Positions 14,041-45,644 of a stretch of DNA of 45,644 nucleotides are shown one piece after another. Each line of letters opens with the position of its first letter. Position 1 is the first letter of the stretch. The translations under genes and the position numbers were made by a program. This stretch comes from a virus: the IMG/VR virus record IMGVR_UViG_3300037420_001400; one strand, 5' to 3'. The notes under the pieces are model-generated. The model was not told the origin of the DNA and searched no databases. It saw nothing but the letters and a program-made list of their open reading frames with translations.

Positions 14041-14046
14041 CTACCC

Positions 14047-28930: not shown

Positions 28931-29400
28931 GATCCTAATTCTTCGTTTACGATGTCCGCCACATCCTGCAGGTATGCGTCCATCATTATTTTTTCTTCCG
29001 CCTTACTTACCCGGAGTACATCCCCGTAATGTTCGCTGTTATAGTTTATTTTGTTCTGAGCAAACTGATCGGTTCCGCCAAGCGTTACGGTATACTTTCC
29101 ATTCTGAATTTCTCTCTTTGTGATGTTCAGCTTTCTGAGCATATCCCCGGTAAATACAAGACGGTTCGGTGTTACGTTCAGTCCTTTTTTTATCCTTCTT
29201 TTCTCGTATCTGGCACTGTAATCAGGAAAAGCAACCTCGTTACCTGATGCATCCACATTTAACCCCTCCTGTGTCACCCGCGCCCGCATAAGAGCCTTCT
29301 GATTTAAAGCCCTTTCATCAATGAGATTGGGAAGCGCTGTATTTAAAGCGTCAAGCGCCTTATCCATCTTTTGCTTAAACTCTTCCGGTGTTAGTGCCAT
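28927..29400 (-). CDS. Head-tail joining / tail-completion protein (HK97 gp10-like)
   Basis: ..FPDYSARYEKRRIKKGLNVTPNRLVFTGDMLRKLNI.. resembles the conserved core of gp10-type neck proteins. Position is downstream of the capsid genes. Confidence 0.4.
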   Translation of the reverse strand: MALTPEEFKQKMDKALDALNTALPNLIDERALNQKALMRARVTQEGLNVDASGNEVAFPDYSARYEKRRIKKGLNVTPNRLVFTGDMLRKLNITKREIQNGKYTVTLGGTDQFAQNKINYNSEHYGDVLRVSKAEEKIMMDAYLQDVADIVNEELGS

Positions 29401-30587: not shown

Positions 30588-31592
30588 TTACTCACAGTTG
30601 AATTTCAACACTCCTGTGTTGTTCAGGTTACATCCTACCGGATTACGGAAGATGTCAGCCTTGGTTTGGATGGACCAGTTGTGCTTGATGTCGTCACCCG
30701 AACAAGTAACCTTGTAGGTAACATCATAGAACACACCCGGTAGGTTCTTCGATTCAACACTGTATTTTAATCCAACGTTTGCGCCGAAATCTTTTGGCGA
30801 GGTTGGCCAGTATGCTTTCGAGGCAAAAGCAACCGCGTTACGGTCGATCAGGAAAGAAGATTTGTCCGGGGAAAGAACGCTGTCCACATTGAACACATCC
30901 CAGTATGAGTGGAGGGTTTTCATCTTCGCTAACTGATCCTTCATATCGGCGTTCATATTGTTTTTATCCGCATTGAAAGCGGCCTCAAACAGGTTGTCGC
31001 CGTTCAAAAGGAATGCATCACGGAACTTGTTTTTCTTCATAACCAGCGCGAAGTAGCCGAACAGGTTGGCGTTCCAATACGCTGGTGCCACGCTCGTCTC
31101 GAAGCCTGATACAACACCTTTTCCGCCATTGTATGCGTTAACCCCCTTGAATGACTCAAGGCGCTCCACGGTCTTTTCCGCAAGGTATTCGTCCAAGAGT
31201 TTCATTTTTCGCATCATCTGAACCGCGATCACCTCCTCTTTGGAGAACATGGATGTACGGAATGTCTTCTCGTCCACCGTGAAGCCTACTTTCTTGCAGA
31301 GCGTCAATGTGTGTGTATCGCAAGATGCTTCCGCTTCTGCTCCACCTACCGTACATTCTGTACCGCAATCTTCGAGCGTTTCGTCACAATCCTTGATCCA
31401 AGCGATCTTGATCGTGTTGTCCTTCTCCGGTGTTTCAAGGTCCGGAAACCTTACTGTTTGTTCGGTTCTGATCGCTGTCAATGCTTCTACATCTGCGATA
31501 AAATCCTTTTTGTACGCTGCATCTGCCCACATATTATCGGCCTTGAGCTGCACTTCCGCTAACTCGGCACATGAAAATTGTCCTGCTGACAT
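30588..31592 (-). CDS. Major capsid protein
   Basis: 334 aa, immediately downstream of a scaffold-like gene and followed by a terminator. Assignment is by position and size. Contains a 5-Cys cluster at aa 69-100. Confidence 0.6.
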   Translation of the reverse strand: MSAGQFSCAELAEVQLKADNMWADAAYKKDFIADVEALTAIRTEQTVRFPDLETPEKDNTIKIAWIKDCDETLEDCGTECTVGGAEAEASCDTHTLTLCKKVGFTVDEKTFRTSMFSKEEVIAVQMMRKMKLLDEYLAEKTVERLESFKGVNAYNGGKGVVSGFETSVAPAYWNANLFGYFALVMKKNKFRDAFLLNGDNLFEAAFNADKNNMNADMKDQLAKMKTLHSYWDVFNVDSVLSPDKSSFLIDRNAVAFASKAYWPTSPKDFGANVGLKYSVESKNLPGVFYDVTYKVTCSGDDIKHNWSIQTKADIFRNPVGCNLNNTGVLKFNCE

Positions 31593-33090: not shown

Positions 33091-33327
33091 ATGAAGGCTC
33101 AAACATCCGAAAACCAAAAACCTGAAAAGAAGGAGAAAAATTATTACAACATTCCAAAGGATCAGGAGTATGTACATGGTACATGGACCCTTGAAGGAAA
33201 CGCGGCCTTAATCGCTAAACAAAAGAGGGACGAAATAAAAAGGACGAAAGGAAGCTGTGGTTATAAAAGAGCTATTAACGCGCTTCTTTGCGAGTTATAC
33301 AATTTGAAACACGGAAACGCGGCTTAG
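33091..33327 (+). CDS. Hypothetical small protein, opposite-strand insert in the head module (moron-like)
   Basis: 78-aa ORF on the plus strand between leftward late genes. Convergent 4-nt overlap with 33324..34220. Confidence 0.5.
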   Translation: MKAQTSENQKPEKKEKNYYNIPKDQEYVHGTWTLEGNAALIAKQKRDEIKRTKGSCGYKRAINALLCELYNLKHGNAA

Positions 33328-34220
33328 TTGAACATGTCGGGCCGGTATCGCTTCGCTAATGAATCGCTGATGTAATCAATCGAGTGCCGGCAATTAAAAC
33401 CACCACAATCTACCAATGGATTGTAATCGTTCTTATCTGCCATTGGTCCGTTGTCGCTACCAATTAAAGACTTCCATTGTTCGGCCTCCTGGGTGGTAAA
33501 ACACTTTCCGTCTCTTTTCACGCAGAACGGGCGGCTTGTTTTGATTTTGCCGCCCTGGTAAATAAAGAACTGCAGATCCAATCTCTCCGCAAACTTCATC
33601 GATGTTGTTCGATCAAATTGATTATACGTATCATGCATGTGCTGGTTGAAATGCCTGACAAGTCCCCCGTCTACATTGGGGTTTCCAACGATTGTTTTTT
33701 CAAGTGTTTTAACCAAATCAGTAACCGGCTTTTTATTCGTTATTCCCTTTAGGATCTTGTCCTTTATGGAATTTTTCAACGACTCATCAGATATTAAACG
33801 ATCAAGATAGCCTCCCTTTACTATCTCGTCCTTTGAATTAAGACCAACCCGTTTTGACATGAAATCCTTGACCTCCTTTTTCACCGAATCGAACCTTTTC
33901 GGGGTTGTGTCCTCTGCAACCACCCGGAAATAATCGCCATTCAGAGAAGCTATCTTTGCAAGGTCGGCACTGAATTGCTTCAGTATGTTAGTATATTCCT
34001 TTTTATTGAAGTCTTTGTAAATAGCATCGATGTCAGATGCGAGATTCAGGTTCTTTCCGGTAGAATTAATTGATCCACCATCCAGCTCCAAATTGCTTAT
34101 AACTTTTCGGTATATCTGGTCATACAGCTTCTTTTCGGCCGCAGATATATGCTTTCGCATAAAGGCCTGGCGCTGCCTTATGAACTCCTGTTTAAGGTCA
34201 GATATTTGAGATCTGGTCAT
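33324..34220 (-). CDS. Minor head protein, Mu F / SPP1 gp7-like
   Basis: The C-terminal ..CGGFNCRHS.. motif and the position right after the portal gene fit Mu-F-like head morphogenesis proteins. Confidence 0.7.
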   Translation of the reverse strand: MTRSQISDLKQEFIRQRQAFMRKHISAAEKKLYDQIYRKVISNLELDGGSINSTGKNLNLASDIDAIYKDFNKKEYTNILKQFSADLAKIASLNGDYFRVVAEDTTPKRFDSVKKEVKDFMSKRVGLNSKDEIVKGGYLDRLISDESLKNSIKDKILKGITNKKPVTDLVKTLEKTIVGNPNVDGGLVRHFNQHMHDTYNQFDRTTSMKFAERLDLQFFIYQGGKIKTSRPFCVKRDGKCFTTQEAEQWKSLIGSDNGPMADKNDYNPLVDCGGFNCRHSIDYISDSLAKRYRPDMFN

Positions 34221-36067
34221 TCTTCAGTTTGTCCGAATGGAAGAGCAACGGCCGGTTCCTGGGTTCCAATAAGCTCAATTAGGGCCTGGACCTTTGAGGT
34301 AACAATTTCCTTTTGCTTTGCATGCGTCATCATGTAGAAATTGGGTCCTATATTTTCGTCCTCTTCAATATCCGTGAATATATTGTCGAAGTTGGCCCAC
34401 AGAATAGTGTTTTCCTTAGTGGTCTTGTTGTTGCTGATGATGTATAAAATCTCAACGTCCGTTTTGTCAGAGAACGGATAGAACTTAGATTTTATACGAA
34501 TCTTAGCCAGTTCGTCCGGCTTATCGATAAATTGGGCCTCTGCTATATCATTGCTCAATTCCTTTCGAACATATCCCGGTGCGTTGCTATCGTTTGCCAA
34601 CTTCAGTTCTGCCAGCAGCTCAGATACTGTTTTGAACTTAAAATCTTTCGGGAACTGGTGAATAATGATGGCATCCGTAATGTCCACATAATAAGCTGAT
34701 GTTTTTGCGATCTGCTTGTATACATCGCTGAACTTTTGAGCATACGGAAACAACGTATCGTATACCGATTCGAGACTTATTTTCTTTTCGGTAGCAGTGG
34801 CGGCCACCTCTGTTTGTGAGAAGATTTCGGAATTGAACACCGCATGCTTTACCTCGTTTTTAAGCTGCAGTATGTATTCATTCTGGAACTTAACAAGATC
34901 TATTGGCGGATGCGCATAGTAAACGAGCTTTGACAGGTCTTGCATGTCCTCGTCCTTTGGCGGCATTCTTAGGATAACAGCATCCTGCGCGGTCGAGTGA
35001 ATTGCTACTCCTGTACCATGGCACCGGCCGCAAACCGTTCCATCGGGAGTCATTCCTCCTACGCAGGTTATTGTTTCGCTTTTTCCCATGCACCTGGGTC
35101 CGTAAGCAAACTTCTGCGGAAAGGTGTGAAGCGCCATTGTCAAATCAAACTCAGAAACGGTTTTAACCGATTTCATCAAGTACGCCATCCCATCGTGAAA
35201 AGGATTTACGCAGGTAGCCCCATCTGTTACAAGATCGCTTTTGTATCCAACCCTGATTGCCGGGACCGTCTTTGATTTATGGTTGAATTCCTCAACAATG
35301 TACAGTTCTTTTTCATTGGCCCTAAACAGTGTTAATTGCTGCTGTATATTATCTACCAATACAGATAATGTCGAGTACTGCCCAATAACAGTTCCGCTGT
35401 ATTCATCCAATGATACCTGAGAGAATTTGAGACTGTATTCAGGACCGTATATTGTGTATGTCCATCCCTGAACAATTCCAGTTCCCGATACAACAGCGAT
35501 TGGCAGGCGAACAATCAACCATTCGAGCGCGTTGTTTTTGTAAAAAAAGTTAATCACATTCTCACTCGGAACCTCGAACGCCCTCGGTTTTGGAACTTGA
35601 GACATCGCTCCGTTTACATCCGGGGCCTCGTCAAATTCAGTTACGATAAAGGCATTGGGATCAGAAAAAGACAGTTCGGTAAACCTGGTTTCAAGGTATT
35701 TATCCAGTGACTTTTCACCCCAAAACCCTTCAATAGCATCAAAAATACGGGTTGCCTTATCAGAGGAACTTTCACTGAAATCGATCTTTTTTGCGATGTT
35801 GTTTGTTCGACCAACCTTATAGAATGGGTTCATTATGGCCGCGCAAATAGCCGGCGTAATAGGTTGTGTTATTCTCTGCCTTTGCTTGAAAAGATCCAGG
35901 TCTTCCCGGCGAACGAACTGATGAAGCAGCTCCTCGAATCCCTCGCCCGTAATCAGTGTTTTGTATTTCTTTGCAAGCTTTACAGTGCGTTCGTAATGTT
36001 CGTGCTGAAGCTTGTTTACAACGGTATCCTGAATGGCAATATATAAATCCGGGAGGGAATAAGGCAT
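34217..36067 (-). CDS. Portal protein
   Basis: 616 aa from internal ATG 36067 (MPYSLPDLYIAIQ..). Lies between terL and the Mu-F-like gene. The longer ORF to 36259 would run through the promoter region. Confidence 0.65.
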   Translation of the reverse strand: MPYSLPDLYIAIQDTVVNKLQHEHYERTVKLAKKYKTLITGEGFEELLHQFVRREDLDLFKQRQRITQPITPAICAAIMNPFYKVGRTNNIAKKIDFSESSSDKATRIFDAIEGFWGEKSLDKYLETRFTELSFSDPNAFIVTEFDEAPDVNGAMSQVPKPRAFEVPSENVINFFYKNNALEWLIVRLPIAVVSGTGIVQGWTYTIYGPEYSLKFSQVSLDEYSGTVIGQYSTLSVLVDNIQQQLTLFRANEKELYIVEEFNHKSKTVPAIRVGYKSDLVTDGATCVNPFHDGMAYLMKSVKTVSEFDLTMALHTFPQKFAYGPRCMGKSETITCVGGMTPDGTVCGRCHGTGVAIHSTAQDAVILRMPPKDEDMQDLSKLVYYAHPPIDLVKFQNEYILQLKNEVKHAVFNSEIFSQTEVAATATEKKISLESVYDTLFPYAQKFSDVYKQIAKTSAYYVDITDAIIIHQFPKDFKFKTVSELLAELKLANDSNAPGYVRKELSNDIAEAQFIDKPDELAKIRIKSKFYPFSDKTDVEILYIISNNKTTKENTILWANFDNIFTDIEEDENIGPNFYMMTHAKQKEIVTSKVQALIELIGTQEPAVALPFGQTEE

Positions 36068-36078
36068 TTCTTTTTTAG

Positions 36079-36139
36079 CAAAATTATTCCACAAAGCCGC
36101 GGAAACAGGTTGTACCGTTGTGGTTATTTTGTATATTTG
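36079..36139. promoter_or_regulatory. Late promoter unit 2 (leftward TAATTTTG + N26 + CCACAACGGTA) and a divergent rightward TAtaTTTG box
   Basis: Plus-strand CAAAATTA at 36079-36086, TACCGTTGTGG at 36113-36123, and plus-strand TAtaTTTG at 36132-36139, 4 nt before ATG 36144. Confidence 0.55.
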
Positions 36140-36143
36140 GTGG

Positions 36144-36347
36144 ATGGCCAAGAAAAAGAAATGCGCCGGAAATGGGCACATTATTAGGGCATGGATATCT
36201 GACCGATCCACTAGTGAGGTTTTATTAAACTTGCTCCCTAAATCATGCCCACCCCACATCTACGACAATGCAAAGGTTGTGTTTCGTGACGGTGAATTAA
36301 AAACACTATCCAAATGCGCGTATTGCGGGTTTGAATTAATATTTTGA
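36144..36347 (+). CDS. Small Cys-containing (zinc-ribbon-like) protein, opposite-strand insert
   Basis: Internal ATG 36144 (MAKKKKCAGNGH..CPPH..CAYCGF). Plus strand, between portal and terL. Confidence 0.45.
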   Translation: MAKKKKCAGNGHIIRAWISDRSTSEVLLNLLPKSCPPHIYDNAKVVFRDGELKTLSKCAYCGFELIF

Positions 36348-36350: not shown

Positions 36351-36803
36351 ATGCTTACATCAGAATTAAGACGCGGGAATATCGTCGCTAAAATAGATCG
36401 ATCAAATTATGTTCATATTCCAATCTATAATATTCCATTTGTGATAGAGGGAATTGATGCTTTCGAGGTTGAGGTTTATAGGTTAGGGGAAAACCCAGTT
36501 CAAACCAAAGAGTTTTTTAAATTCTCGAATAACGATATATGTGGCATCCCACTCACCGAGGAATGGTTGTTGAGGTTGGGAGTTAATAGGCAAACATCGA
36601 ATCATCACACCGTGTACCACAACGATAGGGTTTTGTTTCAACTATATAACGGAGCTCTGGTAATTGAGGGCATAAGTATGCCACTGAAATTAGAATATGT
36701 CCACCAACTCCAAAACCTATATTTCGCCTTGACGGGCGAGGAGCTTATTCCTAATCCGGCTTATAAAGACTCGGAAACGCGCCAACAAGGAAGTACCTCA
36801 TAG
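36351..36803 (+). CDS. Hypothetical protein, opposite-strand insert (moron-like)
   Basis: 150-aa ORF. Its last 53 nt overlap the 3' end of terL convergently. Confidence 0.5.
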   Translation: MLTSELRRGNIVAKIDRSNYVHIPIYNIPFVIEGIDAFEVEVYRLGENPVQTKEFFKFSNNDICGIPLTEEWLLRLGVNRQTSNHHTVYHNDRVLFQLYNGALVIEGISMPLKLEYVHQLQNLYFALTGEELIPNPAYKDSETRQQGSTS

Positions 36804-38238
36804 TATCGCTTGTATGACCGTACTTCTCGAATGTCTGCCCAGTCCTCTCATCCTTGACTTTCTCGATCAGCTTGCCCCCATCCGGACCTTCTTTCAAGAA
36901 CTCAAGGTCCTTTATCAGGTTTTTGCATTTGGTCCCAATAACAATTTTCAGGTTAGGAAATCCACCCTCGAATATCTTATTCACAAAGTCCCTACTCCTT
37001 ACCACTGAAGGATTTCTTTTAATCACCCGGTCGCTATTGTCGTTAAGATATGGTTTAAGGACCTTCTCCAGCTGCTCGAAATTGTGGGTATCGCTTACCG
37101 TTGATCTCGATTTTCCCGATGCGTCACCGTAGTAAAACAGCGCCGACTTAATTCGTCCATATTCCTTTATCGGAATCATAACTCGCCCTTCGAAATGCTT
37201 ACACAGGGCCTCAGTTTTATTGTTTGGAGCTTCAAGGCATATCTCATCAAAAGCTCTTATCTCGTAGATATCACCCTCTTTTACTATTTGCCAGCAGGTC
37301 ATTGTTATGTACGGAACAACGTTAAAGTCAAGGCTTATATGGATAGGAACCCCTTCTACAATTCCAATATCCTGGCAGTGACCCAACCTATTAAACGAGC
37401 TAAACATTTCCCCTCCCGATTTGGCAATTGGAGATCCGTAAATAAGCATGTCGATTTTGTCCTTGTTGCCGGCAAACTCTTCCATTTTACGCTGAATGAA
37501 TCCTTTCGGCAGGTTCTCTTCATTATGCCATGTGCTGCTAATAACCGCCAACTTATCCTTTGTTTCCAGCTTGAAATAATCCGTCTTACTAAAGATCTTC
37601 TGACTGATCTCGTCGTACAAATCGGAAAGACCAAACCACTCGTTGAGCCAGTACACCTTTGCGGGTGACGTGAAAATGTATAGGGGATTGTAGCCCTCAG
37701 TTGTAACTTTTGGATAATCGTATACAACTCCGGCGGCATCTACATACATTGCCTTTTGTCGCATCCTCCAAATGATAACCTCCTTTACCGCTTCTTCTTT
37801 TGTGTCCTTAGTTTCATCCAGCATGGCCCAACCTAATTCCGTTCCGTCAAGCACCTTGTAATTGTCGAGGGAGGCGGTAAAGATTAAGGCGCCATTATCG
37901 AACGAAATAGTATTCTTGTAAGATTCGAGAGGCTGCCCGTGTCTTTTGAAGTGAGCGGGAGGTATTATATTTGTAACATAGTGAACGCCATTTTTCCAGC
38001 CGAACACATCATGCCAGGTTTCGAATACGCGCTTTAACGTGGACTTTGATAGCTGAGAATAGGTGTTAGCCGCTATAAGACCAACGGCATTAGGAAAGTT
38101 GATAACGAAATCAGCAGAACCCAAAGCGATGCCGTGCGTCTTACCACTACCAGCCCCAGCCAAGAATAGGTTTAGGTTCTTAGTCGAGGAAAGTATATCG
38201 TGTTGCGGTGCAGATACATTTATTTCTTTTGTTTCCAA
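36751..38238 (-). CDS. terL: Terminase large subunit
   Basis: Walker A LAGAGSGKT, Walker B-like AMLDET, and a C-terminal nuclease-type ..GHTSDTMRY.. motif. 495 aa. Confidence 0.9.
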   Translation of the reverse strand: METKEINVSAPQHDILSSTKNLNLFLAGAGSGKTHGIALGSADFVINFPNAVGLIAANTYSQLSKSTLKRVFETWHDVFGWKNGVHYVTNIIPPAHFKRHGQPLESYKNTISFDNGALIFTASLDNYKVLDGTELGWAMLDETKDTKEEAVKEVIIWRMRQKAMYVDAAGVVYDYPKVTTEGYNPLYIFTSPAKVYWLNEWFGLSDLYDEISQKIFSKTDYFKLETKDKLAVISSTWHNEENLPKGFIQRKMEEFAGNKDKIDMLIYGSPIAKSGGEMFSSFNRLGHCQDIGIVEGVPIHISLDFNVVPYITMTCWQIVKEGDIYEIRAFDEICLEAPNNKTEALCKHFEGRVMIPIKEYGRIKSALFYYGDASGKSRSTVSDTHNFEQLEKVLKPYLNDNSDRVIKRNPSVVRSRDFVNKIFEGGFPNLKIVIGTKCKNLIKDLEFLKEGPDGGKLIEKVKDERTGQTFEKYGHTSDTMRYFLVGAFPSLYKPD

Positions 38239-38483
38239 ATCTTATCCATTTCATCCTTTACTAAAACAGAGTTTTTGTCAATGCCGCAGTTTTTTATATC
38301 CATAACTAACTTCTTTTGCTTTCTGAACCTAATTAATTCATCAATGCTAATTTCATCAAGGTAATTCTTGAGGTTCTCTATAATAATATCGCAGGCCTTT
38401 AGATGGCAGTATGACTTGCATGAATAAATAATATTTACAGCTTTTTCAAAAATCGGGGAATATGTTATTTTTTTAGCGCTCAT
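38220..38483 (-). CDS. Hypothetical protein (last gene of the glycosyltransferase island)
   Basis: 87-aa ORF. TAATG overlap with the upstream GT gene and 19-nt overlap with the terL start. Confidence 0.5.
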   Translation of the reverse strand: MSAKKITYSPIFEKAVNIIYSCKSYCHLKACDIIIENLKNYLDEISIDELIRFRKQKKLVMDIKNCGIDKNSVLVKDEMDKIWKQKK

Positions 38484-39235
38484 TATTTTATTACCTCCTT
38501 ATCAAACCAAGGGTGATCCATCATTAATTCCGGTAATTCGTTCCTGTTAAATGGTTTTGGGTTCCACGTATCCCTGCAGGTTGGGTGAACATCCATAACG
38601 GGCGGGAAAGGTTTATACTTTTCTTCAAACCATCGTTGCTTTGGCAGTATCCATTCCTTGCTGTGCCCGTGAATACTTATCTTATACTCGATGTCCTCAA
38701 AACGCCTTGCATAACCGAAATGCCAAACCTGGTTAGTTGGCTTATCGGAGTAAATCAATCCTGTTTTATTCGGGCCTATATAATAAATTCGCTCCTGCCT
38801 CATTGGATCATCACAGATGTAATTGAACGATCTCCACAAGTGACGCATCCAAACGAGGCACTTTTCAGATCTCTTTTCGTATACCTCCTGAATGAGTTCT
38901 TTCAGGTATTGTGTATTCCAAACCTCGTCCGAATCCAGAGCAACGACTATATCGAATTCATGCTTTCTGGCATAATCGAAAGCCGCGTTCCGGTGTTGGT
39001 TTTCCCTGAACCAGACCCCGTTGTGCCATACAACCTTATTCTTGTCATCATTACTCCATGCTTGTTGCTGCAGGCGTTCCCTTGTGTCCGAACAGGACAT
39101 TGAACTAACTGATCCGTGAGACGGTCTCGACGTATACAGTATAAGAATCTCATCTACACAGTCGTATACGGACCCGATAGCATATTTTAGGTAATCGCAC
39201 CCATAGTGCAGTGGTATGTAGGCGAGGACTTTCAT
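38483..39235 (-). CDS. GT-A fold glycosyltransferase (GT2-like)
   Basis: N-terminal LAYIPLHYGCDYLKYAIGSV.. and an ..ALDSDEVW.. (DxD-type) motif. 250 aa with no TM segment. Confidence 0.55.
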   Translation of the reverse strand: MKVLAYIPLHYGCDYLKYAIGSVYDCVDEILILYTSRPSHGSVSSMSCSDTRERLQQQAWSNDDKNKVVWHNGVWFRENQHRNAAFDYARKHEFDIVVALDSDEVWNTQYLKELIQEVYEKRSEKCLVWMRHLWRSFNYICDDPMRQERIYYIGPNKTGLIYSDKPTNQVWHFGYARRFEDIEYKISIHGHSKEWILPKQRWFEEKYKPFPPVMDVHPTCRDTWNPKPFNRNELPELMMDHPWFDKEVIK

Positions 39236-39468
39236 TAATTATTTGAAAACATTGTTTTGAACCCAAATACAATCCAGTATGGATTTTGTGTTTCATATCC
39301 ATAATTAGGCTTATATGTAGAATAGTTAACATCCGTAGTGAATCGAAAGAACTCAAATACAACTCCTACAGGGTTTTCGGTTGGAAGATCCTTAGCCACA
39401 TATCCAGTAACATAGTGATCGAATTTTTTCGATAGTTTTTTTCTGAGCAGTTCTAAAGGTTCATGCAT
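39235..39468 (-). CDS. Hypothetical protein in the glycosyltransferase island
   Basis: 77-aa ORF overlapping both neighbours. Confidence 0.45.
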   Translation of the reverse strand: MHEPLELLRKKLSKKFDHYVTGYVAKDLPTENPVGVVFEFFRFTTDVNYSTYKPNYGYETQNPYWIVFGFKTMFSNN

Positions 39469-40078
39469 ATTGCCCCCTTATTTGTTCGCATTGCTGCGGG
39501 GTTAAATATTTATCGATAGCGTGGCAGCCGAATGTTCCTAGTTGGAAAATTGATTCGCAACTGAATTTCTTACAGGCTTCTTTGTTGTAATGGCTGTGTG
39601 TTTGGTATAAAGCGTTTGAGAAAAACACGTCCTCGTTGCCATGTTTTGAGTAATCGTAAGGTCCATGCTTTTCGATTGCCTTTATCATTTCCGATTTCTT
39701 TCGGAAAGATAGACCTCCGTTACCTCCGTTTGATTGGAATTTCCATGGAGCGCCTAAGTACTCGTAGTTGAAAAACTCTTCGATGCCGGGTCTAAGTATT
39801 TCGCTGTCGTGCTGAAATATTAATATGTTTTCCTCATCGATTAATCCCCAAAATCCTAATATGGTTAGCAGCTTGTTATACAAATTCTGATCTATTGGCT
39901 CTTCAAGATCAACAAATGTGTATTTAAAGTCAGCCCGTGACAGCAATAAGTCAACCTGATCGCTACCGAATACATACAGCTTCGTGTAATACGGTAGAAA
40001 TTTAAGATGATTCTCAATTACCTGTTTCAAGTTGTTAAGCGGTCGAGTCTCTACTATGACGGCGGCTAATTCACTCAT
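39461..40078 (-). CDS. DUF5672-like putative glycosyltransferase
   Basis: ..ILIFQHDSEI..YEYLGAPW..GNGGLSFRK..NEDVFF.. matches the pattern I associate with DUF5672 proteins. Confidence 0.5.
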   Translation of the reverse strand: MSELAAVIVETRPLNNLKQVIENHLKFLPYYTKLYVFGSDQVDLLLSRADFKYTFVDLEEPIDQNLYNKLLTILGFWGLIDEENILIFQHDSEILRPGIEEFFNYEYLGAPWKFQSNGGNGGLSFRKKSEMIKAIEKHGPYDYSKHGNEDVFFSNALYQTHSHYNKEACKKFSCESIFQLGTFGCHAIDKYLTPQQCEQIRGQYA

Positions 40079-40839
40079 AACGTGGTTTTCAAAAGGTGTT
40101 TGTATTTGTCAACGTTCAGTCGCAATTCATCTGGGAAACTCTCATCAATCGGAACGATCTCAAACGAATACCCGCGGTTAAATAGGTCCTCATTCCTTTC
40201 CATCCTTGCGCGTATGTGATGCTCATTATTGTACTCCGGCAGATTCATGTCCTGGTGAGCAAAGGCGTTTATCTTCTCGCTTATCCGATCGGGTCCGCCC
40301 ATGTATGAGAAGTGCCAGCCCATTTTATCATGCACAATATCAGGTTCTTTTCCCCTCATCTCGTGAGGGCTCCAATATTTAAGATAATCGTACCTGAAAG
40401 CTTTAATGATCGTTTGTTCAAGGCTCATTTTGCAATTCAGGTGGTAGTAATAGTATTGCATAGGGAAGCCGGCAACACCTGATCCAATGGCTCCAAAATC
40501 AAACCCTTTTAAATTCGGCATCTCGTCTACATCCGAAACAATCACTATATCATCCGACTTTGCTCCATCACGTTCAAGACCATCCCGGATACTGTTCCTT
40601 TGAGCGAATTCATTACCCCATTCCCCTCGGCCGCCAAAGTCCATAGCAACGTGTACGATCTTTGGCAGAAACTTGGCGAACCGTTCCTTATTCTCTTCGA
40701 AGTACAGCGGCTTTTCCTTGAATGTAAATGTCTTTTTGCACTCCGCAATAACAAATTTATCCACATAAGGATCCAGCTCATTCAGCCGAATTTCAAGCAG
40801 ATCAAGTTCATTAAAGAATGTGAAGCAGTCGTAAATCAT
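40075..40839 (-). CDS. Glycosyltransferase family 17-like (bisecting GlcNAc-transferase family)
   Basis: MIYDCFTFFNELDLLEIRLNELDPYVDKFVIAE.. and ..GWHFSYMGG..KINAFAHQ.. are the hallmark GT17 blocks. Confidence 0.75.
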   Translation of the reverse strand: MIYDCFTFFNELDLLEIRLNELDPYVDKFVIAECKKTFTFKEKPLYFEENKERFAKFLPKIVHVAMDFGGRGEWGNEFAQRNSIRDGLERDGAKSDDIVIVSDVDEMPNLKGFDFGAIGSGVAGFPMQYYYYHLNCKMSLEQTIIKAFRYDYLKYWSPHEMRGKEPDIVHDKMGWHFSYMGGPDRISEKINAFAHQDMNLPEYNNEHHIRARMERNEDLFNRGYSFEIVPIDESFPDELRLNVDKYKHLLKTTL

Positions 40840-40848
40840 TTCTGTTTT

Positions 40849-40947
40849 CTATTTTAAGAAGTGTTCAACAATTCTGTAAACAATGGTTCCGAAATACATA
40901 CCGCACCATATAGGACTTGATATAAATCTGTATAGTTTATCCTTCAT
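40849..40947 (-). CDS. 32-aa hydrophobic micro-protein
   Basis: Hand translation: MKDKLYRFISSPIWCGMYFGTIVYRIVEHFLK. Its ATG overlaps the upstream stop (ATGA). Confidence 0.3.
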   Translation of the reverse strand: MKDKLYRFISSPIWCGMYFGTIVYRIVEHFLK

Positions 40948-41846
40948 ATCATTTTCATTAAGTCTTCAATTCTATTTCTCCACGTATGGTTAGCATGGAC
41001 GTGTAGGCTTCCAAGTTCTGCCATTTCCGCCCTGATCAGATCGTTTTCTATGAATGCATCTATCTTACTAAACAGCTCACTGAAATTATCCCACGTTTCG
41101 AGGTGCTTGCCGATTACAAACTCCCTTCCTATTCCTTGATAATTGTGACTAAGCACCATACGCCCCGATCCCATTGCCCTTAGCATTCGGTCTGACGTGT
41201 ATCTCGGATAGTCGAAGTGACTAAGGTTAATTGCAATCTTTGCTGCCCTGTACATTGATGCCTCGGCGTGTTGATCGGTAATAGACATTGTTCCGGATCC
41301 CCAACCGCTACCGTATACGCCAAACCTACTTCCGTATCGTTGTTTCAGGGAACGTACCATATCCTGCCTCATTTTACTGAGCGGAAACCCTCCCGGATTG
41401 TTGCCAAAGAACACTATTTCCGGCACATCAAACGCCTTTAGTCCATTCGGAGTGAATATCTTATCCGGCACACCGATCTGCAGATAATCGGATTTGATCC
41501 CATGCCTTCTGCAAATCTCTACATCGTACATGTTGGTGAATAAGGTCAGATGTATGTGCCGGCCCACGTCAATATACCATTGTGGAGTTGGAGCCCTTAC
41601 GTCTCCCGTCCAATTCACAATCTTAGTCTTTGCCGAAAGCTCCTTCATCATCCATGGCAGGACAATACCAGGCGTTTGTATTTGCATGAACACGAGATCC
41701 GGCGAATGCTGATCAACCAACGACCGTAACGCGTAGTTAACATCGCAACGATCCTTAGTGAAATCCCAATAAATAACATCCCCATGCAATGCTAATGCAT
41801 CACGAATATCGAATTGATTGCCGAGGGCTACTTGCAGGGTTTTCAC
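40944..41846 (-). CDS. CgeB-like (Glyco_trans_1_2-type) glycosyltransferase
   Basis: ..FFGNN..R..MV..L..RFGVYGSGW..YRAAKIAINLSH..YTSDRMLRAMGSG..L.. resembles CgeB-family GT-B C-terminal domains. GTG start overlaps the upstream stop (GTGA). Confidence 0.6.
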   Translation of the reverse strand: MKTLQVALGNQFDIRDALALHGDVIYWDFTKDRCDVNYALRSLVDQHSPDLVFMQIQTPGIVLPWMMKELSAKTKIVNWTGDVRAPTPQWYIDVGRHIHLTLFTNMYDVEICRRHGIKSDYLQIGVPDKIFTPNGLKAFDVPEIVFFGNNPGGFPLSKMRQDMVRSLKQRYGSRFGVYGSGWGSGTMSITDQHAEASMYRAAKIAINLSHFDYPRYTSDRMLRAMGSGRMVLSHNYQGIGREFVIGKHLETWDNFSELFSKIDAFIENDLIRAEMAELGSLHVHANHTWRNRIEDLMKMI

Positions 41847-41992
41847 AGATGTTTATTTATGAACTTTTCAAGATTGATGCACCAGTGAAAGATGATTAAT
41901 AAAACAGAAAGCTTCCATCCGAACCAGAAGACAGTTAGAACAAGCAGTAGCACATAAAGGGCTACGGTGAATATCGTTAGGTATTTTTTCAT
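41843..41992 (-). CDS. 49-aa two-TM micro-protein
   Basis: Hand translation: MKKYLTIFTVALYVLLLVLTVFWFGWKLSVLLIIFHWCINLEKFINKHL. 4-nt overlaps at both ends. Confidence 0.4.
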   Translation of the reverse strand: MKKYLTIFTVALYVLLLVLTVFWFGWKLSVLLIIFHWCINLEKFINKHL

Positions 41993-42594
41993 TCGTGCGG
42001 TGTTATCATTTTATATGGTTGCGGGACCCGGTTGCTTGGGTTGTAATTCCTCACACCAGAATTATGCAAGTGATAGGTCTTTATCGTTTTTGATGGATTC
42101 AGGACATTGTATCCTGCCACATGTGCCCTGTTTGCAATGGCATTATCGCAGCCAGCTATTCCCTGAAAGAAATCAGCATTCATTTTACGGGCTTTCCCCT
42201 TAAATGCCCATGTGTCCTGTGAATCCCATGTGTTGTGATGTTTGATATTGCCATTCTTATCAACATCCCAACGAGCTAAGGCAATGAAATCGTTATGCGT
42301 GTATTTGTTCAACAGGCCAATAGTTTCGTCCGTGTAGATGTCCGAATTAATCAGGACATTCCAATCATCCGGACCGGTCACTGAGTTGATGATGTCAAAC
42401 ATCGCATTATATGTTGGTCGGTAGTGGATCAAACAGTATGTTACATCGTTTATGGCCGGGAGTGGAAATCCATCATGTATAATGAATATGCGGTCAACAG
42501 ATGCGTTGGATCTGTTATTTCTAATGCACTTATCAATCTCATCCTGCCTTGCCGGAACTTTATCTACGTAATATGGGATAAACAGATTGATCAT
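41989..42594 (-). CDS. Putative glycosyltransferase-like protein (family not recognised)
   Basis: ..VLINSDIY.., ..SQDTWAF.. and ..GIAGCDNAIANRAHVAGYNVLNPS..YHLH.. recall a viral/bacterial GT-like family. Assignment is tentative. Confidence 0.35.
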   Translation of the reverse strand: MINLFIPYYVDKVPARQDEIDKCIRNNRSNASVDRIFIIHDGFPLPAINDVTYCLIHYRPTYNAMFDIINSVTGPDDWNVLINSDIYTDETIGLLNKYTHNDFIALARWDVDKNGNIKHHNTWDSQDTWAFKGKARKMNADFFQGIAGCDNAIANRAHVAGYNVLNPSKTIKTYHLHNSGVRNYNPSNRVPQPYKMITPHE

Positions 42595-42857
42595 TTATTC
42601 TTTACTACAAGCAGCCCAGATTTAATTTGGTTCTCCATGAACTGGCCCTGCACAACTATACGGCACCCATAACGGATCCACTCTGGAGATTCCAGGAAGG
42701 TATTTAGCGCGTTCTTAGCGGATTCAACGTCCAACCTGTCGAGGCGCTCGATCTCATCCTTTATTTTCTGTCTCTCATTAGCCTTGCGGTTCTCTTCCTT
42801 AATGAGGAGTCCTCTGCCAGATTGTTCTCTCTGTTTGATTGTTGGTTTCTTTGCCAT
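42591..42857 (-). CDS. Hypothetical basic coiled protein in the glycosyltransferase island
   Basis: Start at internal ATG 42857 (MAKKPTIKQ..), a TAATG overlap with the GT2 stop. Confidence 0.45.
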   Translation of the reverse strand: MAKKPTIKQREQSGRGLLIKEENRKANERQKIKDEIERLDRLDVESAKNALNTFLESPEWIRYGCRIVVQGQFMENQIKSGLLVVKNK

Positions 42858-43471
42858 TAATAGTCGATTTTTCCCGGGATGTGACACACCACATATTCCG
42901 GCGTTGATATTTTTGTGTAATTATTAGAAGCCCGTTTAAGGCTTTCCACGAATCCCCTGTCATCGTGACCATAACCTGCAGTGTCCCATTTAGCCTGCAA
43001 CGACCTCCTGTGAGCTATATTAGCCGTTCCGTGCTGGAATCGCTGGTTGATAAGTGCAGTCCTTTCGATTGTTCCTTTCGGGGTCATCACGAGATCATTG
43101 AACCAAACCCAATCGCTTTCCCCCAAATGCTCATCCAGTTTCTTCAGGTGATCAATACCCCAAAAGTCATCGGCATCCAAGTAAACAATCCATTCCCCCT
43201 TTGCCTTTGATATTCCAAAGTTCCTGCAGGCTCCCGACCACATTGGCTGTTTGGATATCAAATAGCATTCAATCTGCTTTTTTCTTGAATGAAGAGTTTC
43301 AACAATCTCAAAGGTCCTCTCACATCCATCCGCAATAATGATCATCTCCCAATCCTTATATGACTGACAAGAAACCGATTGAATGGCCCGGTCGAGCTTG
43401 TATTCCCGGTCACTGGCCGCGTTCTTGTACTCGCCCAAAAAGCACTGCATTATGACGGAGAACTTAGGCAT
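42857..43471 (-). CDS. Family 2 glycosyltransferase (GT-A, DxD)
   Basis: FSVIMQCF..AIQSVSCQSYKDWEMIIIADG.. and ..YLDADDFW.. are classic GT2 blocks. Its ATG overlaps the terS stop (TAATG). Confidence 0.8.
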   Translation of the reverse strand: MPKFSVIMQCFLGEYKNAASDREYKLDRAIQSVSCQSYKDWEMIIIADGCERTFEIVETLHSRKKQIECYLISKQPMWSGACRNFGISKAKGEWIVYLDADDFWGIDHLKKLDEHLGESDWVWFNDLVMTPKGTIERTALINQRFQHGTANIAHRRSLQAKWDTAGYGHDDRGFVESLKRASNNYTKISTPEYVVCHIPGKIDY

Positions 43472-43923
43472 TACTTCCCTTTTGTTTTAATGGAGAATTG
43501 GGTTTGGGAAACGTTCAGGTTTAGGTCGCCCGTAATTGCCTGTTCTACCTTGTCCCTCCATTTAGCCGGCTGCCGGTTCTTTAACCAAAAAATACAGGCT
43601 GTCGTGTCCGGCGGATAATGCTCTTTATATTTAATGATTTGCTCAGAACCCGATTTGGGATCAGCAAATATCTTAACGGCATCATGCGTGTAACCGGTTG
43701 CCCTGTGGTAAAGCTTTTCGGCTACATCTCCATCCGCCTCAAGTTTGCCCCTTTTTATGGACGCAAAAAACTCAGGATGAACCTTTTTCCAATTATTCAG
43801 CGTAGCAACAGTTACCTCAAAGAAGGCAGATAGCTCTTCATCTATTAGGCCCAATTTGCAAAGCCTTTCCGCTTGAGCACAGTACTCTTTACGGTAATCC
43901 GTCGGTCTTCCCTCCTTAGCCAT
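43471..43923 (-). CDS. terS: Terminase small subunit
   Basis: GRPTDYRKEY..ELSAFFEVTVATLNNWKKVHPEFF..IFWLKNRQPAKWRDK fits the HTH-type terS family. Confidence 0.8.
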   Translation of the reverse strand: MAKEGRPTDYRKEYCAQAERLCKLGLIDEELSAFFEVTVATLNNWKKVHPEFFASIKRGKLEADGDVAEKLYHRATGYTHDAVKIFADPKSGSEQIIKYKEHYPPDTTACIFWLKNRQPAKWRDKVEQAITGDLNLNVSQTQFSIKTKGK

Positions 43924-44152
43924 GTTCTGCAGTTCTTTGTGTTTCGAAATACTCCTTATTCATTCGGTTGTAGGTTGACAAAAGGGTGCGCAACTTCACA
44001 TTTTCTTCTGAAACCCCATGCTTTCGCATGAAGTTCAATACTGCCTTTTCGTTTGTTGCACCAGGAACATTGTCTTTCAGACTCGACACATAGCCAAAGA
44101 AGTAAGCGTCCGTGAAAGATCTTTTGTAAAGTTTGAAGATGTCTTTTGTCAT
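43916..44152 (-). CDS. Hypothetical protein (first gene of the late packaging operon)
   Basis: ORF 43916..44155, with the likely ATG at 44152 (MTKDIFKLY..). Overlaps the terS start by 8 nt. Confidence 0.5.
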   Translation of the reverse strand: MTKDIFKLYKRSFTDAYFFGYVSSLKDNVPGATNEKAVLNFMRKHGVSEENVKLRTLLSTYNRMNKEYFETQRTAEHG

Positions 44153-44157
44153 CAAGG

Positions 44158-44202
44158 CAAAATTATTGCCTCAGTTGCAAATTGCAATTGATACCGTTGT
44201 GG
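44158..44202 (-). promoter_or_regulatory. Late promoter unit 1: TAATTTTG + N26 + CCACAACGGTA, with the GTTGCAAATTGC 12-mer in the spacer
   Basis: Plus-strand CAAAATTA at 44158-44165, GTTGCAAATTGC at 44174-44185 and TACCGTTGTGG at 44192-44202. Confidence 0.55.
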
Positions 44203-44216: not shown

Positions 44217-45380
44217 TTATTCCCCAAACATGGTCTTAATCGCCTGTCCGGTCTTTTTCTTGTTGAACTTGTTTTTGTACCTGAGCGTAGTGGAAAGCTT
44301 TTTGTGCCCAAGCAGAGCCATTAAGGTGAATGGATCCACGTCCTCGTTCTCTGCTTTATCTGTAAAGGCGTGCCTGGCCTTGTGGATGGATATTTTACGG
44401 CCTATGGCGAATTTAAGCCTCTCGGATATGTTCTTCAGGTTGTTGTTAATAACAGTATTAGCTGAGTCAATCACATCAATACATTCAGCTTCGCTTACCC
44501 AAGCAGTACGCTCCAAAATAGGGAACACATATTTCTTCGTGTTGAACTCCTCCTTTATTTCGGCAAGCAGTTTTTTGACCGGAGGCGATATGTACACCAT
44601 TTTTTCAGCTATGCTTTTTTTGGTCTTATTGGGGGTAAATGTAATGTGCTCCTCGTCAATATTTGACCACTGCAGCCGGCAAAGATCACCGAAACGCACC
44701 CCTCCGTTATAGTAGCTGATCAGATACATGAACCGGGCAAGTCGCTCATTATAGTTCGATAGCTTTACATCGCTGAAGGTCTTTGTTTCCTCTTCGCTGA
44801 GTCGGTCAATTTTTGTTTCCTCGGTTTTGAGCTTGAATTTATCGAATGGGTATTTGGAGGGGTCATACTTACCGTCGTTACGAGCTACCCTGATTATTGC
44901 CCGTAACTGCTCCATGTTCTTAGTGATCGTATTGATAGAATTACCACGCTTCAGGCACCAGGATTTATACGATTTCAGGTAAGAATAGTCTACTTCATTC
45001 AGTAGTGACCCGCTTTGGAACCTATCGAATTTGTTAATTACTGATTCCAGCTTTGAATAGTGCGTAACGCTGATTTCCTTTTTTACTTCGAGAATATAGC
45101 TCGACCAATAATCCTTAAGCTTTATTCCGTTCTCAAACGTACCGGATTTACCGGTTAGGTATATTCGCTCCGCTTCCCTCTCCTTGTCTGCAATAATCAG
45201 GTTATAGTCTGCGGCGGATGGATAAGCGGGTTTAACCCTTCCCTTTTTTTGATCCCAATGGTCGGGCCTTATTTTAATGCCTATGGATATCAGGCGCTCC
45301 TTTTTGCTGCCCAGGTACACCCGGGTAAAAAGTGACCCTTTTATTTCACCTTTCCGAACCTTTAAGATAGTGCTTACCAT
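44217..45380 (-). CDS. int: Tyrosine-type site-specific integrase
   Basis: C-terminal catalytic pattern ..HKARHAF.. (HxxR), ..LLGH.. and ..TLRY... The N-terminal arm-binding-type domain is typical of Bacteroidota integrases. Confidence 0.9.
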   Translation of the reverse strand: MVSTILKVRKGEIKGSLFTRVYLGSKKERLISIGIKIRPDHWDQKKGRVKPAYPSAADYNLIIADKEREAERIYLTGKSGTFENGIKLKDYWSSYILEVKKEISVTHYSKLESVINKFDRFQSGSLLNEVDYSYLKSYKSWCLKRGNSINTITKNMEQLRAIIRVARNDGKYDPSKYPFDKFKLKTEETKIDRLSEEETKTFSDVKLSNYNERLARFMYLISYYNGGVRFGDLCRLQWSNIDEEHITFTPNKTKKSIAEKMVYISPPVKKLLAEIKEEFNTKKYVFPILERTAWVSEAECIDVIDSANTVINNNLKNISERLKFAIGRKISIHKARHAFTDKAENEDVDPFTLMALLGHKKLSTTLRYKNKFNKKKTGQAIKTMFGE

Positions 45381-45517: not shown

Positions 45518-45644
45518 AGTCGGGGTGGCCAGATTAGGGGTTAAAACATGCTTTTAATTGATTTACAGACAATTAGATCGGTTATTCTGAATGTATGCTC
45601 TGACCAAGTTGGGGATTAGTAATTGATTTTACATTCATTCGAGG
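45518..45644. repeat. Terminal direct repeat copy 2 (duplicate of 1..127)
   Basis: Base-for-base identity with 1..127, read directly. Confidence 0.9.

Follow-up and report, generated by a model that had tools for sequence, protein, structure and literature searches.

Why should eleven open reading frames, six of them glycosyltransferase-like, be placed between the small and large terminase genes of a phage? The window analysed here, that is, the whole stretch of 45,644 nucleotides, represents the genome of a temperate phage, circular and complete at 45.5 kb, whose host phylum is probably Bacteroidota, and the island occupies positions 38220-43471 on its minus strand. We propose that the island serves the late-expressed, stepwise glycosylation of virion proteins, with the head proteins as putative acceptor, a reading that we hold at about even confidence.

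The minus-strand order is terS, GT2a, an 88-aa ORF, a 201-aa glycosyltransferase (GT), a 49-aa ORF, a CgeB-like gene, a 32-aa ORF, a GT17-like gene, a DUF5672 gene, a 77-aa ORF, GT2b, an 87-aa ORF and terL; the features below lie on this strand unless stated otherwise. The eleven ORFs and all the start/stop overlaps listed in the original prediction, which had the island coupled into the packaging operon, were recovered, and the genes are tightly packed from terS (43471..43923; phrog_309, 3.5e-52) to terL (36751..38238; TTG start; phrog_2, 3.1e-15; Terminase_6N, 1.4e-4). Read from the sequence, TAATG junctions are found at 43471, 42857, 39235 and 38483, the first coupling the GT2a start to the terS stop, with ATGA junctions at 42591, 41989, 40944 and 40075 and a GTGA junction at 41843. 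The 77-aa ORF and the DUF5672 gene share 8 nt (39461-39468), the 87-aa ORF overlaps terL by 19 nt, and the only true gap in the terS-terL chain, of about 9 nt, precedes the GT17 gene. The chain begins with orf79 (79 aa; 43916..44155), which overlaps terS by 8 nt and whose homologues in relatives are no more than about 1.5 kb away from the GT2a gene; at the other end, the head module runs on downstream of the portal gene (34217..36259; phrog_7376, 1.4e-15). The 61-nt gap between orf79 and the tyrosine integrase gene (44217..45380; phrog_1, 1.6e-36; Pfam Arm-DNA-bind_5, Phage_int_SAM_5 and Phage_integrase) holds a candidate Bacteroidota -7 promoter box, TAATTTTG (44158..44165), directly before the orf79 start; it is suggestive by its position only, since chance alone would give 45 copies of the motif in the window and 42 are present. 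The packing leaves no space for promoters inside the island; a well-placed one was looked for and none was found, which is weak evidence. It is the gene packing that suggests late co-transcription of the island with the packaging genes: the transcript would probably start in the int-orf79 gap and extend from orf79 and terS across the eleven ORFs of the island to terL and the portal gene, and the TAATG, ATGA and GTGA overlaps would let ribosomes move from gene to gene.

All six candidate ORFs are glycosyltransferase-like, by family or by fold. The Pfam thresholds are passed by four of them: GT2a (42857..43471), a GT2-family GT-A enzyme (PF00535, 8.9e-16); the CgeB-like protein (40944..41846; GTG start), with a Glyco_trans_1_2 domain (PF13524, 1.3e-20); the GT17-like enzyme (40075..40839; PF04724, 5.1e-32); and the DUF5672 protein, a putative glycosyltransferase (39461..40078; PF18922, 1.2e-22). 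GT2b (38483..39235) has a sub-threshold match to PF00535 (1.5e-3), and the 201-aa ORF (41989..42594), whose family has no Pfam or NCBIfam model, gave no match in the Pfam search; both are assigned from confident AlphaFold (AF2) models (pLDDT 95.5 and 95.4, respectively; pTM 0.92), whose Foldseek matches in the PDB are mainly GT-A glycosyltransferases (SunS, SpsA, ppGalNAc-T, chondroitin polymerase), a few nucleotidyltransferases sharing the GT-A fold appearing lower in the lists. The expected motifs are all present in the translations, namely DADD in GT2a, NSDI/SQDTW in the 201-aa enzyme and an invariant DSDE in GT2b. Residues D101, D103 and E104 are invariant among GT2b homologues, and N83, D85, D127 and W129 among those of the 201-aa enzyme, in which an invariant NxD replaces DxD. 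As originally claimed, none of the six contains a transmembrane (TM) segment (maximum 19-residue Kyte-Doolittle mean ≤1.4), and a search of the whole genome found no gene for sugar-nucleotide synthesis, initiating phosphoglycosyl transferase, flippase or polymerase.

The island had been described as inserted, which does not hold in the sense of a recent acquisition. In GC, GC3, codon usage and tetranucleotide profile it is indistinguishable from the remaining genome, and it is kept in relatives whose terL is at most 78% identical (78% for L001 and L002); we therefore conclude that it is not a recent insertion. Core members of the island, defined below, were found at only three loci in 185,579 species-representative bacterial and archaeal genomes, all of them on phage-like or CPR/DPANN MAG contigs, and for five of the six window GTs NCBIfam has no matching bacterial family, so that the enzymes look virus-specific and not derived from a host capsule locus.

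The 201-aa GT has 4,175 cluster representatives at E≤1e-10, and its relatives were located at 321 IMG/VR loci, most of the 80 fetched carrying the same four enzymes (the 201-aa GT-A enzyme, the CgeB-like protein, GT2b and the DUF5672 protein). These form a conserved core cassette, which is new here. The window's core is common to L002/L021, L008/L009, L016, L017, L022 and L024, and the CgeB-like gene, whose homologues bear the JGI label 'spore maturation protein CgeB', comes immediately after that of the 201-aa GT, both in the window lineage and in several others. In relatives a GT cassette stays at or near the packaging genes while individual enzymes are exchanged: the variable slot occupied here by the GT17 gene instead holds a Methyltransf_24 enzyme in L008 and a 187-aa ORF in L002, L005 has five different GT-like ORFs upstream of terS, and in L004 and L006 a GT2a homologue directly follows the portal gene. 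The L050-type lineage is a large one, and each of its loci with sufficient flank has the order major head protein gene (phrog_10, 1.3e-40), cassette, head-tail adaptor Ad1. In L023 a single ORF separates the cassette from the major head protein gene upstream of it; in L028 the cassette is flanked by an MCP-like gene on one side and the portal gene on the other, and in L014 it is downstream of a Terminase_3 terL. Together these make no fewer than four independent positions among genes for the head or for packaging. The claim of a stepwise glycan on virion proteins is thus strengthened in part, by a core that lies shortly downstream of the major capsid gene in three other lineages and of terL in a fourth phage type; late co-transcription of the island is suggested by gene packing only. 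The retention of the cassette and its head-module placements would argue for virion glycosylation, as do the extra enzymes of relatives (Methyltransf_24, Hexapep, Sulfotransfer_2 and PS_pyruv_trans, i.e. methyl-, acetyl-, sulfo- and pyruvyl-transferases), which are of glycan-decorating types. Against it count L012, in which the cassette neighbours are replication and chaperonin genes and no head genes, and the head and tail proteins of the window phage, which have neither Ser/Thr-rich tails nor inserts relative to the GT-poor relative L004.

The integrase gene also counts against the virion reading. It lies about 0.75 kb from the island start, directly upstream of the packaging operon, so that in the prophage the island lies close to att and int, where lysogenic-conversion genes are classically located; the contrast initially drawn with att-proximal Gtr genes overlooked this. 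The main rival hypothesis, whose probability we consider rather low, is that the enzymes remodel the host envelope: the GTs would work at the inner membrane face on undecaprenyl-linked capsule, LPS or O-glycan intermediates begun by host enzymes, host machinery would export the altered glycan, and the altered surface would stop superinfection, or progeny sticking to debris, whether in the lysogen or at a late stage of infection. The island also contains a small conserved TM peptide (the 49-aa ORF, 41843..41992; KD19 2.48), with a TM-like ORF at the matching position in L008 and L009, which hints at a role at the membrane, and the weak NCBIfam/PHROG matches of GT2a are polysaccharide GTs (TuaG, WcaA, PglI, GtrB-like). 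The GT families of the island and the pyruvyl-, sulfo- and acetyl-transferases of relatives are just as characteristic of capsule and O-antigen loci, and morons, genes unconnected with virion structure, occur within the structural operons of other phages. The solubility of the GTs, originally taken to speak against host-surface modification, is a weak argument, since capsule and O-antigen GTs are, as far as is known, themselves mostly soluble or peripheral. Published readings of GTs in phage structural regions likewise prefer host-envelope modification, for the Gratiaviridae (PMC8008677) and for pelagimyophages (PMC7029224). However, the genome was searched and encodes no phosphoglycosyl transferase, flippase, polymerase or ligase; at least six GTs would make an essentially new repeat unit that the host export machinery would need to accept; and the genes are translationally chained within the packaging operon and form no separate unit. 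Moreover, the capsid-adjacent position is kept in lineages sharing no att context, cassette contigs are binned to hosts of very different envelopes (Bacteroidota, cyanophage, CPR and DPANN bins), and the cassette is nearly absent from cellular genomes. Gtr systems combine three components: a flippase, a bactoprenol-linked GT and a serotype-specific GT that is an integral membrane protein. GtrABC-type seroconverting prophages resemble the window phage in being temperate, in carrying GT genes near int/att and in a surface glycan change as a possible benefit, but the window GTs are without TM segments, are accompanied by no flippase and are chained into an operon that is probably late, and the GtrB-like PHROG match of GT2a, at 2e-6, is a weak one that covers the generic GT2 core.

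The terminase neighbourhood raises the further hypothesis, very improbable in our judgement, that sugars are added to hydroxymethylated phage bases around packaging and protect the DNA from restriction. DNA-modifying phage GT-A and GT-B enzymes are at times serial and at times near terminase genes (Pyle et al., bioRxiv 10.1101/2023.12.21.572611), and the GT block of L005 adjoins a ParB-DNA methylase gene pair. However, a scan of each early-region ORF of at least about 140 aa found no thymidylate-synthase-like hydroxymethylase, TET/JBP (5mYOX) or C5-cytosine methylase in the complete genome, whose DNA methylase is of Dam type only. The window thus differs from T-even phages and from the 5mYOX- and ThyS-linked systems in having no enzyme that makes a hydroxymethyl base, and GTs without hydroxymethylase/TET-type neighbours are unlikely DNA modifiers (bioRxiv 10.1101/2023.12.21.572611). 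The capsid-adjacent position in other lineages also fits poorly with a DNA target. To our knowledge, six GTs and the sulfo- and pyruvyl-transferases of relatives exceed every known DNA glycan pathway.

The five small ORFs interleaved with the GTs suggest another kind of acceptor, which might be a small phage peptide or protein, such as one of these ORFs or the phrog_10066 protein, a host cytoplasmic protein, or a lipid or free oligosaccharide with some other part in infection; we regard this as unlikely. Besides the 49-aa ORF, they comprise the basic 88-aa ORF (42591..42857), the 32-aa ORF (40849..40947; ATGA overlap with the CgeB-like stop), whose gene status is uncertain, the 77-aa ORF (39235..39468) and the 87-aa ORF (38220..38483), the 88-, 77- and 87-aa ORFs being without an assigned function. 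The 49-aa and 32-aa ORFs are not called by the public gene caller. A 150-aa phrog_10066 ORF, located on the plus strand (36351..36803) and convergent with terL, has homologues that recur within or beside the cassette in unrelated phages, and both modelled GTs have the peptide S-glycosyltransferases SunS and ThuS among their top PDB matches (SunS, ThuS and SpsA leading for GT2b). Such fold matches are, however, generic for GT-A enzymes, and the phage has no gene for an exporter or a peptidase. Of the small ORFs, the 88-aa one is kept in close relatives only, and the others lack conservation among the lineages that bear the cassette; no homologue of the 77-aa ORF and no counterpart of the 87-aa ORF was found in relatives. 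The phrog_10066 gene is sporadic (6 of about 65 L050-type loci) and is possibly an accessory gene or a mobile hitch-hiker.

For virion glycosylation, the nearest precedents lie outside the Bacteroidota phages, for which, as the original prediction surmised, no such island was found described in the open-access papers searched. According to Freeman et al. 2023, as cited in PMC11600133 and PMC11256854, tandem GTs and an O-methyltransferase modify capsid and tail-tube proteins of mycobacteriophages in the cytoplasm, the GT cassettes belonging to temperate and lytic siphoviruses of clusters F1, O and C2, with the O-methyltransferase in cluster O and the F1 genes near the right genome end (PMC11256854). 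The likeness lies in the tandem soluble phage GTs and in the methyltransferase that L008 also carries inside its cassette. As far as those accounts go, the differences are the number of GTs (six here, two to four there), the location inside the packaging/head operon instead of near the right genome end as in F1, the host phylum, and the glycosylation itself, which in the window phage is putative. A tblastn search of 50,697 deposited phage genomes with five of the six window GTs (GT2a left out) gave no mycobacteriophage match; these enzymes are therefore not close homologues of the mycobacteriophage GTs.

Some giant viruses also glycosylate their own particles: chloroviruses and mimivirus use their own cytoplasmic GTs and methyl-, acetyl- and pyruvyl-transferases to furnish capsid or fibril proteins with complex glycans. 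They have eukaryotic hosts and encode sugar-nucleotide synthesis genes, which the window phage does not. Among viral structures, the 201-aa GT matches proteins of Cedratvirus, Pithovirus and Mimiviridae best (TM-scores of 0.73-0.91, the highest with a Cedratvirus GT; 20-35% identity), which by analogy may count for virion glycosylation; we know of no characterised function for these proteins. The CgeB-like enzyme recalls Bacillus subtilis CgeB, which has been linked to the decoration of the spore crust, a large protein shell built inside the cell. The two have only the domain family in common, there is no sporulation context here, and we know of no biochemical definition of the reaction of CgeB itself.

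We hypothesise that the island is a phage-owned glycan-assembly pathway within the late head/packaging operon. Its six soluble enzymes, four GT-A-type (GT2a, the 201-aa GT, the GT17-like enzyme and GT2b) together with the DUF5672 and CgeB-like proteins, would draw on host nucleotide sugars, because the phage encodes no sugar-activation genes, and would assemble a hetero-oligosaccharide stepwise in the cytoplasm, with virion surface proteins, most likely those of the head, as acceptors. The 201-aa GT, the CgeB-like protein, GT2b and the DUF5672 protein would make a conserved core, the outer part being varied by the extras of each lineage, GT2a and GT17 here and methyl-, acetyl-, sulfo- and pyruvyl-transferases in relatives. 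The benefit could be a shield, or the stability or adhesion of the particles. The presence of the core cassette beside capsid genes in many uncultured phages suggests that sugar-coated phage particles may be commoner than known.

Eleven minus-strand ORFs lie at 38220-43471, between terS (43471-43923) and terL (36751-38238), and direct reading found every one of them at the coordinates, and with the overlaps, that the original prediction had described. The island genes are thus overlap-chained between the two terminase genes. We considered an ORF to encode a glycosyltransferase (GT) if it gave a significant family-profile match, or a confident GT-A or GT-B fold together with a conserved metal- or nucleotide-binding motif. 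Four of the six putative GTs scored above the Pfam gathering threshold, namely GT2a (42857-43471; GT2, 8.9e-16), the CgeB-like protein (40944-41846; Glyco_trans_1_2, 1.3e-20), the GT17-like protein (40075-40839; GT17, 5.1e-32) and the DUF5672 protein (39461-40078; 1.2e-22). The match of GT2b (38483-39235) to the Pfam GT2 model is sub-threshold (1.5e-3), and the Pfam search returned none for the 201-aa ORF (41989-42594). Homologues were gathered and structures predicted for the latter two proteins; the AF2 models have pLDDT values of 95.5 for GT2b and 95.4 for the 201-aa ORF, and their Foldseek matches in the PDB are mostly GT-A enzymes. The motifs NSD, SQDTW and DSDE, singled out in the original prediction, hold family-invariant residues in the homologue alignments, the invariant motifs being NxD in the 201-aa GT and DxDE in GT2b. 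The assignment of all six ORFs as GTs is therefore borne out by Pfam or by AF2 and Foldseek, with the proviso that DUF5672 is by definition a domain of unknown function, so that its GT status is argued from context only. An NCBIfam search gave a family-level name for none of the GTs, an exact-protein look-up of the GT17 protein returned no record, and a PDB sequence search with the 201-aa family profile gave only a chance match (E 0.66). Peptide glycosylation of the SunS type, as for glycocins, was considered and set aside, the fold match being generic and neither a precursor nor an exporter being conserved.

All six GTs are, as predicted, devoid of transmembrane (TM) segments. A 49-aa ORF between the 201-aa GT and CgeB-like genes (41843-41992, minus strand) encodes a strong TM peptide. 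A small single-TM ORF is kept at this position in close relatives, as in two of the loci fetched for comparison (L008, about 860-990; L009, about 3330-3460; L numbers denote such loci throughout), and small non-TM ORFs take its place in more distant ones.

The late minus-strand block reads int, orf79 (a 79-aa ORF, the first gene of the chain), terS, island, terL, portal, head, tape measure, tail and amidase, the identities of terS, terL and portal being supported by PHROGs matches; the early plus-strand block encodes an exonuclease, a replisome organiser and a Dam methylase. Among the head genes, those at 30588-31592 and 29400-30524 encode candidate capsid proteins, and that at 33324-34220 a minor head protein. 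Sigma-70-type promoter and terminator-like sites are no more frequent than in shuffled sequence, and the Bacteroidota two-box promoter pattern gave no useful match, its -7 box being no commoner than by chance; for the -7 box before orf79, the position alone is suggestive. The first 127 bases are identical to the last 127 (1-127 and 45518-45644, an exact direct repeat). Read as an assembly overlap, this repeat indicates that the genome is circular and complete, with a length of about 45,517 bp, and circular closure places a presumed attP region between int (45380) and the left-end genes. Two public read sets, SRR35147159 and SRR35148586, contain the identical genome in contigs of 45.5 kb, and a related contig is part of the Bacteroidota MAG JAZKBX010000105. 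The host probably belongs to the Bacteroidota, judging from the type of tyrosine integrase (Arm-DNA-bind_5/Phage_int_SAM_5 architecture), from the resemblance of TerL to those of Flavobacterium, Cellulophaga and Bacteroides phages, and from a syntenic 45.7-kb contig in a Bacteroidota MAG bin. A GTDB scan with the terL profile gave no match, and blastn of a 7.2-kb region against deposited phages gave trivial terS matches only. A look-up with the integrase, meant to reach a 51.9-kb contig with host flanks, led back to the 45.5-kb contig alone. Elsewhere in the genome, an 884-aa tail-region protein (21903-24557, minus strand) carries three PKD-like domains (PF19408, 5e-24), which make it a candidate carbohydrate- or surface-binding module, and a weak GIY-YIG ORF lies in the early region (14504-15088).

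The view of the GT genes as an inserted island, in the sense of a recent acquisition, is countered by their genome-like composition. The GC content (42.5%), the GC3 and the tetranucleotide distance of the island are inside the range of the genome, and its codon usage correlates with that of the structural and of the early genes at r = 0.86, the same value as between those two sets. Since this compositional test for foreign DNA was negative, we rejected recent insertion. The terS-GT-terL synteny is kept in relatives, among which single genes are exchanged. In L002 and L021, whose terL is 78% identical to that of the window, a 187-aa ORF replaces GT17; in L008 and L009, two contigs of one metagenome assembly, a Methyltransf_24 enzyme does so. 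L016 has the same arrangement as the window with an additional hexapeptide acetyltransferase and another GT2, and L017, from a Bacteroidota MAG, has a ten-gene island with two copies of the 201-aa GT. Relatives with 43-44% terL identity depart from this pattern: L005 has five different GT-like ORFs (two GT2, a DXD-type Gly_transf_sug, a borderline GT10-like and a sub-threshold GT7C-like ORF) upstream of ParB-methylase, terS and terL, and L004 and L006 have a GT2a homologue immediately 3' of the portal gene. Several other genes were observed at these loci. In L002, the closest IMG/VR relative, a nucleoside 2-deoxyribosyltransferase-like ORF (3571-3876; phrog_355, 7e-26) that is missing from the window lies just upstream of the island, and in L004 a GIY-YIG/NUMOD3 homing-endonuclease gene (2518-3138) separates the terS-like gene from terL. 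L005 has two overlapping ORFs (7685-8843) that separate its GT block from terS; one encodes a ParB N-terminal domain, the other an N6/N4 DNA methylase. Each matches phrog_498, a phage methyltransferase family, and the two look like a split or frameshifted gene.

Comparison beyond these relatives reveals a conserved core. An IMG/VR search with the 201-aa family profile gave 321 loci, and most of the 80 that were fetched unite the CgeB-like, GT2b, DUF5672 and 201-aa genes, in this order in a large lineage and in the cyclic permutation 201-aa, CgeB-like, GT2b, DUF5672 in others. The cassette adjoins the major capsid protein (MCP) gene in other lineages. In L050, terL, portal, head morphogenesis protein, protease and major head protein (phrog_10, 1.3e-40) genes precede it according to PHROGs; the cassette itself comprises CgeB-like, GT2b, DUF5672, a 184-aa ORF, the 201-aa GT and a GT4-like GT, and is followed by the head-tail adaptor Ad1, major tail protein and tape measure genes. 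The order MCP, cassette, Ad1 is found in all L050-type loci with enough flank. L023 has a different portal and MCP, and its cassette, partly in the form of multidomain fusions, follows the major head protein gene after a single intervening ORF. The cassette is located between an MCP-like gene and portal in L028, and 3' of a Terminase_3 terL in L014, where a sulfotransferase and a polysaccharide pyruvyl transferase accompany it; an extra sulfotransferase is present in L013 and an extra nucleotide-sugar epimerase in L097 (a 209-kb contig). L012 is the exception, with the cassette between replication and GroES/GroEL genes. Two stretches of this 81-kb contig (1-958 and 17383-19280) hold a TnpB/IS605 OrfB-like gene and the GroES/GroEL pair, and an HNH/NUMOD4 homing-endonuclease gene (13481-14068) lies within its GT cassette.

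A 150-aa ORF of the window (36351-36803, plus strand; phrog_10066, no Pfam match) faces terL in convergent orientation and shares 53 nt with the terL 3' end. Its homologues, with the conserved ends ELRxGN ... YVHQLQNLYFALTGxEL, lie within or next to the GT cassette of unrelated phages (L012, L014/L015, L017, L038, L046, L057, L067, L072 and L086). A PDB sequence search with this ORF gave no match; its sporadic occurrence resembles that of a mobile hitch-hiker or an optional accessory gene.

Five of the six GTs (all but GT2a) were compared by tblastn with 50,697 deposited phage genomes. No match was obtained for GT2b or the CgeB-like protein, the 201-aa GT matched cyanophage S-SKS1 and a 735-kb megaphage only, and the matches of DUF5672 and GT17 were confined to Synechococcus phages, megaphages and one fragment of a marine virus. 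Hence no cassette was found in cultured phages by this search of deposited genomes. The 201-aa family pattern has three loci in 185,579 species-representative genomes, one on a phage-sized Bacteroidota MAG contig and two on CPR/DPANN MAG contigs. The family has neither a Pfam nor an NCBIfam model, and a library of 1.84 billion proteins yields, at E<=1e-10, 4,175 cluster representatives for it, many being multidomain fusions of 500-1,200 aa, the longest with 1,222 aa. For the CgeB-like family, over 300 members are on record in metagenomes, and phage-sized contigs carry most of them. The best predicted viral structure matches of the 201-aa GT come from an uncultured phage, followed by Cedratvirus, Pithovirus and Mimiviridae (TM-score up to 0.91). 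Many uncultured tailed phages carry the cassette, ranging in size from siphoviruses of 33 kb to contigs of more than 200 kb, and one core member has giant-virus homologues. In L018, from a Candidatus Gracilibacteria bin (GC 26%), the 201-aa GT domain is inside a 971-aa ORF (194-3109) followed by eleven same-strand ORFs; this lineage may use an alternative genetic code, which makes table-11 ORF calls unreliable there.

DNA, host envelope glycans and virion proteins are the classic acceptor candidates for phage GTs. DNA is poorly supported and, in our judgement, very improbable: neither scanning the early genes with Pfam and PHROG nor the precomputed Pfam annotation of all called genes revealed a ThyA-like hydroxymethylase, TET/5mYOX or C5-methylase, and the sole methylase found in the window is of the Dam type. 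GTs without hydroxymethylase or TET-type neighbours are unlikely DNA modifiers according to the paper defining such pathways (bioRxiv 10.1101/2023.12.21.572611).

Remodelling of host envelope glycans is a serious rival that we nevertheless regard as unlikely. The island starts about 0.75 kb from int and so agrees in location, as distinct from expression, with Gtr-type seroconversion modules, which are found near att/int and are expressed from the prophage. Such modules comprise a GtrA flippase, a GtrB bactoprenol GT and an integral-membrane serotype-specific GT, whereas the GTs of the window have no TM segments, its genome encodes no flippase-like protein, and the sole link is a weak, generic GtrB-like PHROG match of GT2a. 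As originally predicted, no sugar-nucleotide, phosphoglycosyl-transferase, flippase or polymerase genes were found in the entire genome. A Wzx/Wzy or ABC polysaccharide locus is likewise disfavoured, as the window has neither a phosphoglycosyl transferase to start synthesis, nor a flippase or ABC transporter, nor a polymerase or ligase; host enzymes could substitute for these, and their absence therefore lowers the case for family membership without excluding the function. If host remodelling were true, the island would be an unusually large conversion module driven from a late operon.

We propose that the cassette glycosylates virion proteins, the best-fitting reading, to which we assign an even chance. 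It fits best because the island is tightly chained into the packaging operon, because at least four lineages that differ in their head genes carry the core next to capsid or packaging genes, because its distribution is virus-restricted, because the 201-aa GT is structurally linked to giant-virus proteins and because mycobacteriophages give a precedent. To our knowledge, covalent glycosylation of phage particles has been demonstrated experimentally in mycobacteriophages only (2023), where it alters antibody recognition; the five window GTs compared by tblastn gave no mycobacteriophage match. As acceptor signatures in the window proteins, neither Ser/Thr-rich tails nor Bacteroidetes D(S/T)(A/I/L/V/M/T) sequons nor inserts by comparison with the GT-poor L004 were informative. 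Some other acceptor is rather improbable.

Phage GT clusters and virion glycosylation are already known in kind. In the searchable literature on DUF5672, phage capsid glycosylation and GTs in structural modules, the cassette is nowhere described; the enzyme set appears to be undescribed, as do the four genes conserved as its core and the way in which these are nested within head modules in many uncultured lineages, one of them represented by a probable Bacteroidota phage. The observation itself is solid and has been extended by comparison, and from it we infer the function. It can tentatively be hypothesised, with somewhat less than even confidence, that a widespread virus-specific four-enzyme cassette coats capsids with complex glycans that are variably methylated, acetylated, sulfated or pyruvylated, and that capsid glycosylation is common and has been overlooked in environmental and Bacteroidota phages, instead of being peculiar to mycobacteriophages. 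The comparison defines a large GT-A family, with over 4,000 cluster representatives, for which Pfam offers no model and which is shared with giant viruses, and it provides a concrete, testable gene set of four core enzymes with swappable decorating enzymes. If virion glycosylation is true, Bacteroidota phages and hundreds of uncultured lineages would have glycan-coated capsids, which would bear on how stable phages are, how they adhere to mucus or polysaccharide matrices, how they are recognised by the immune system and how therapy is designed, and would change the annotation of virome GTs, now usually taken as host-surface morons or DNA modifiers.
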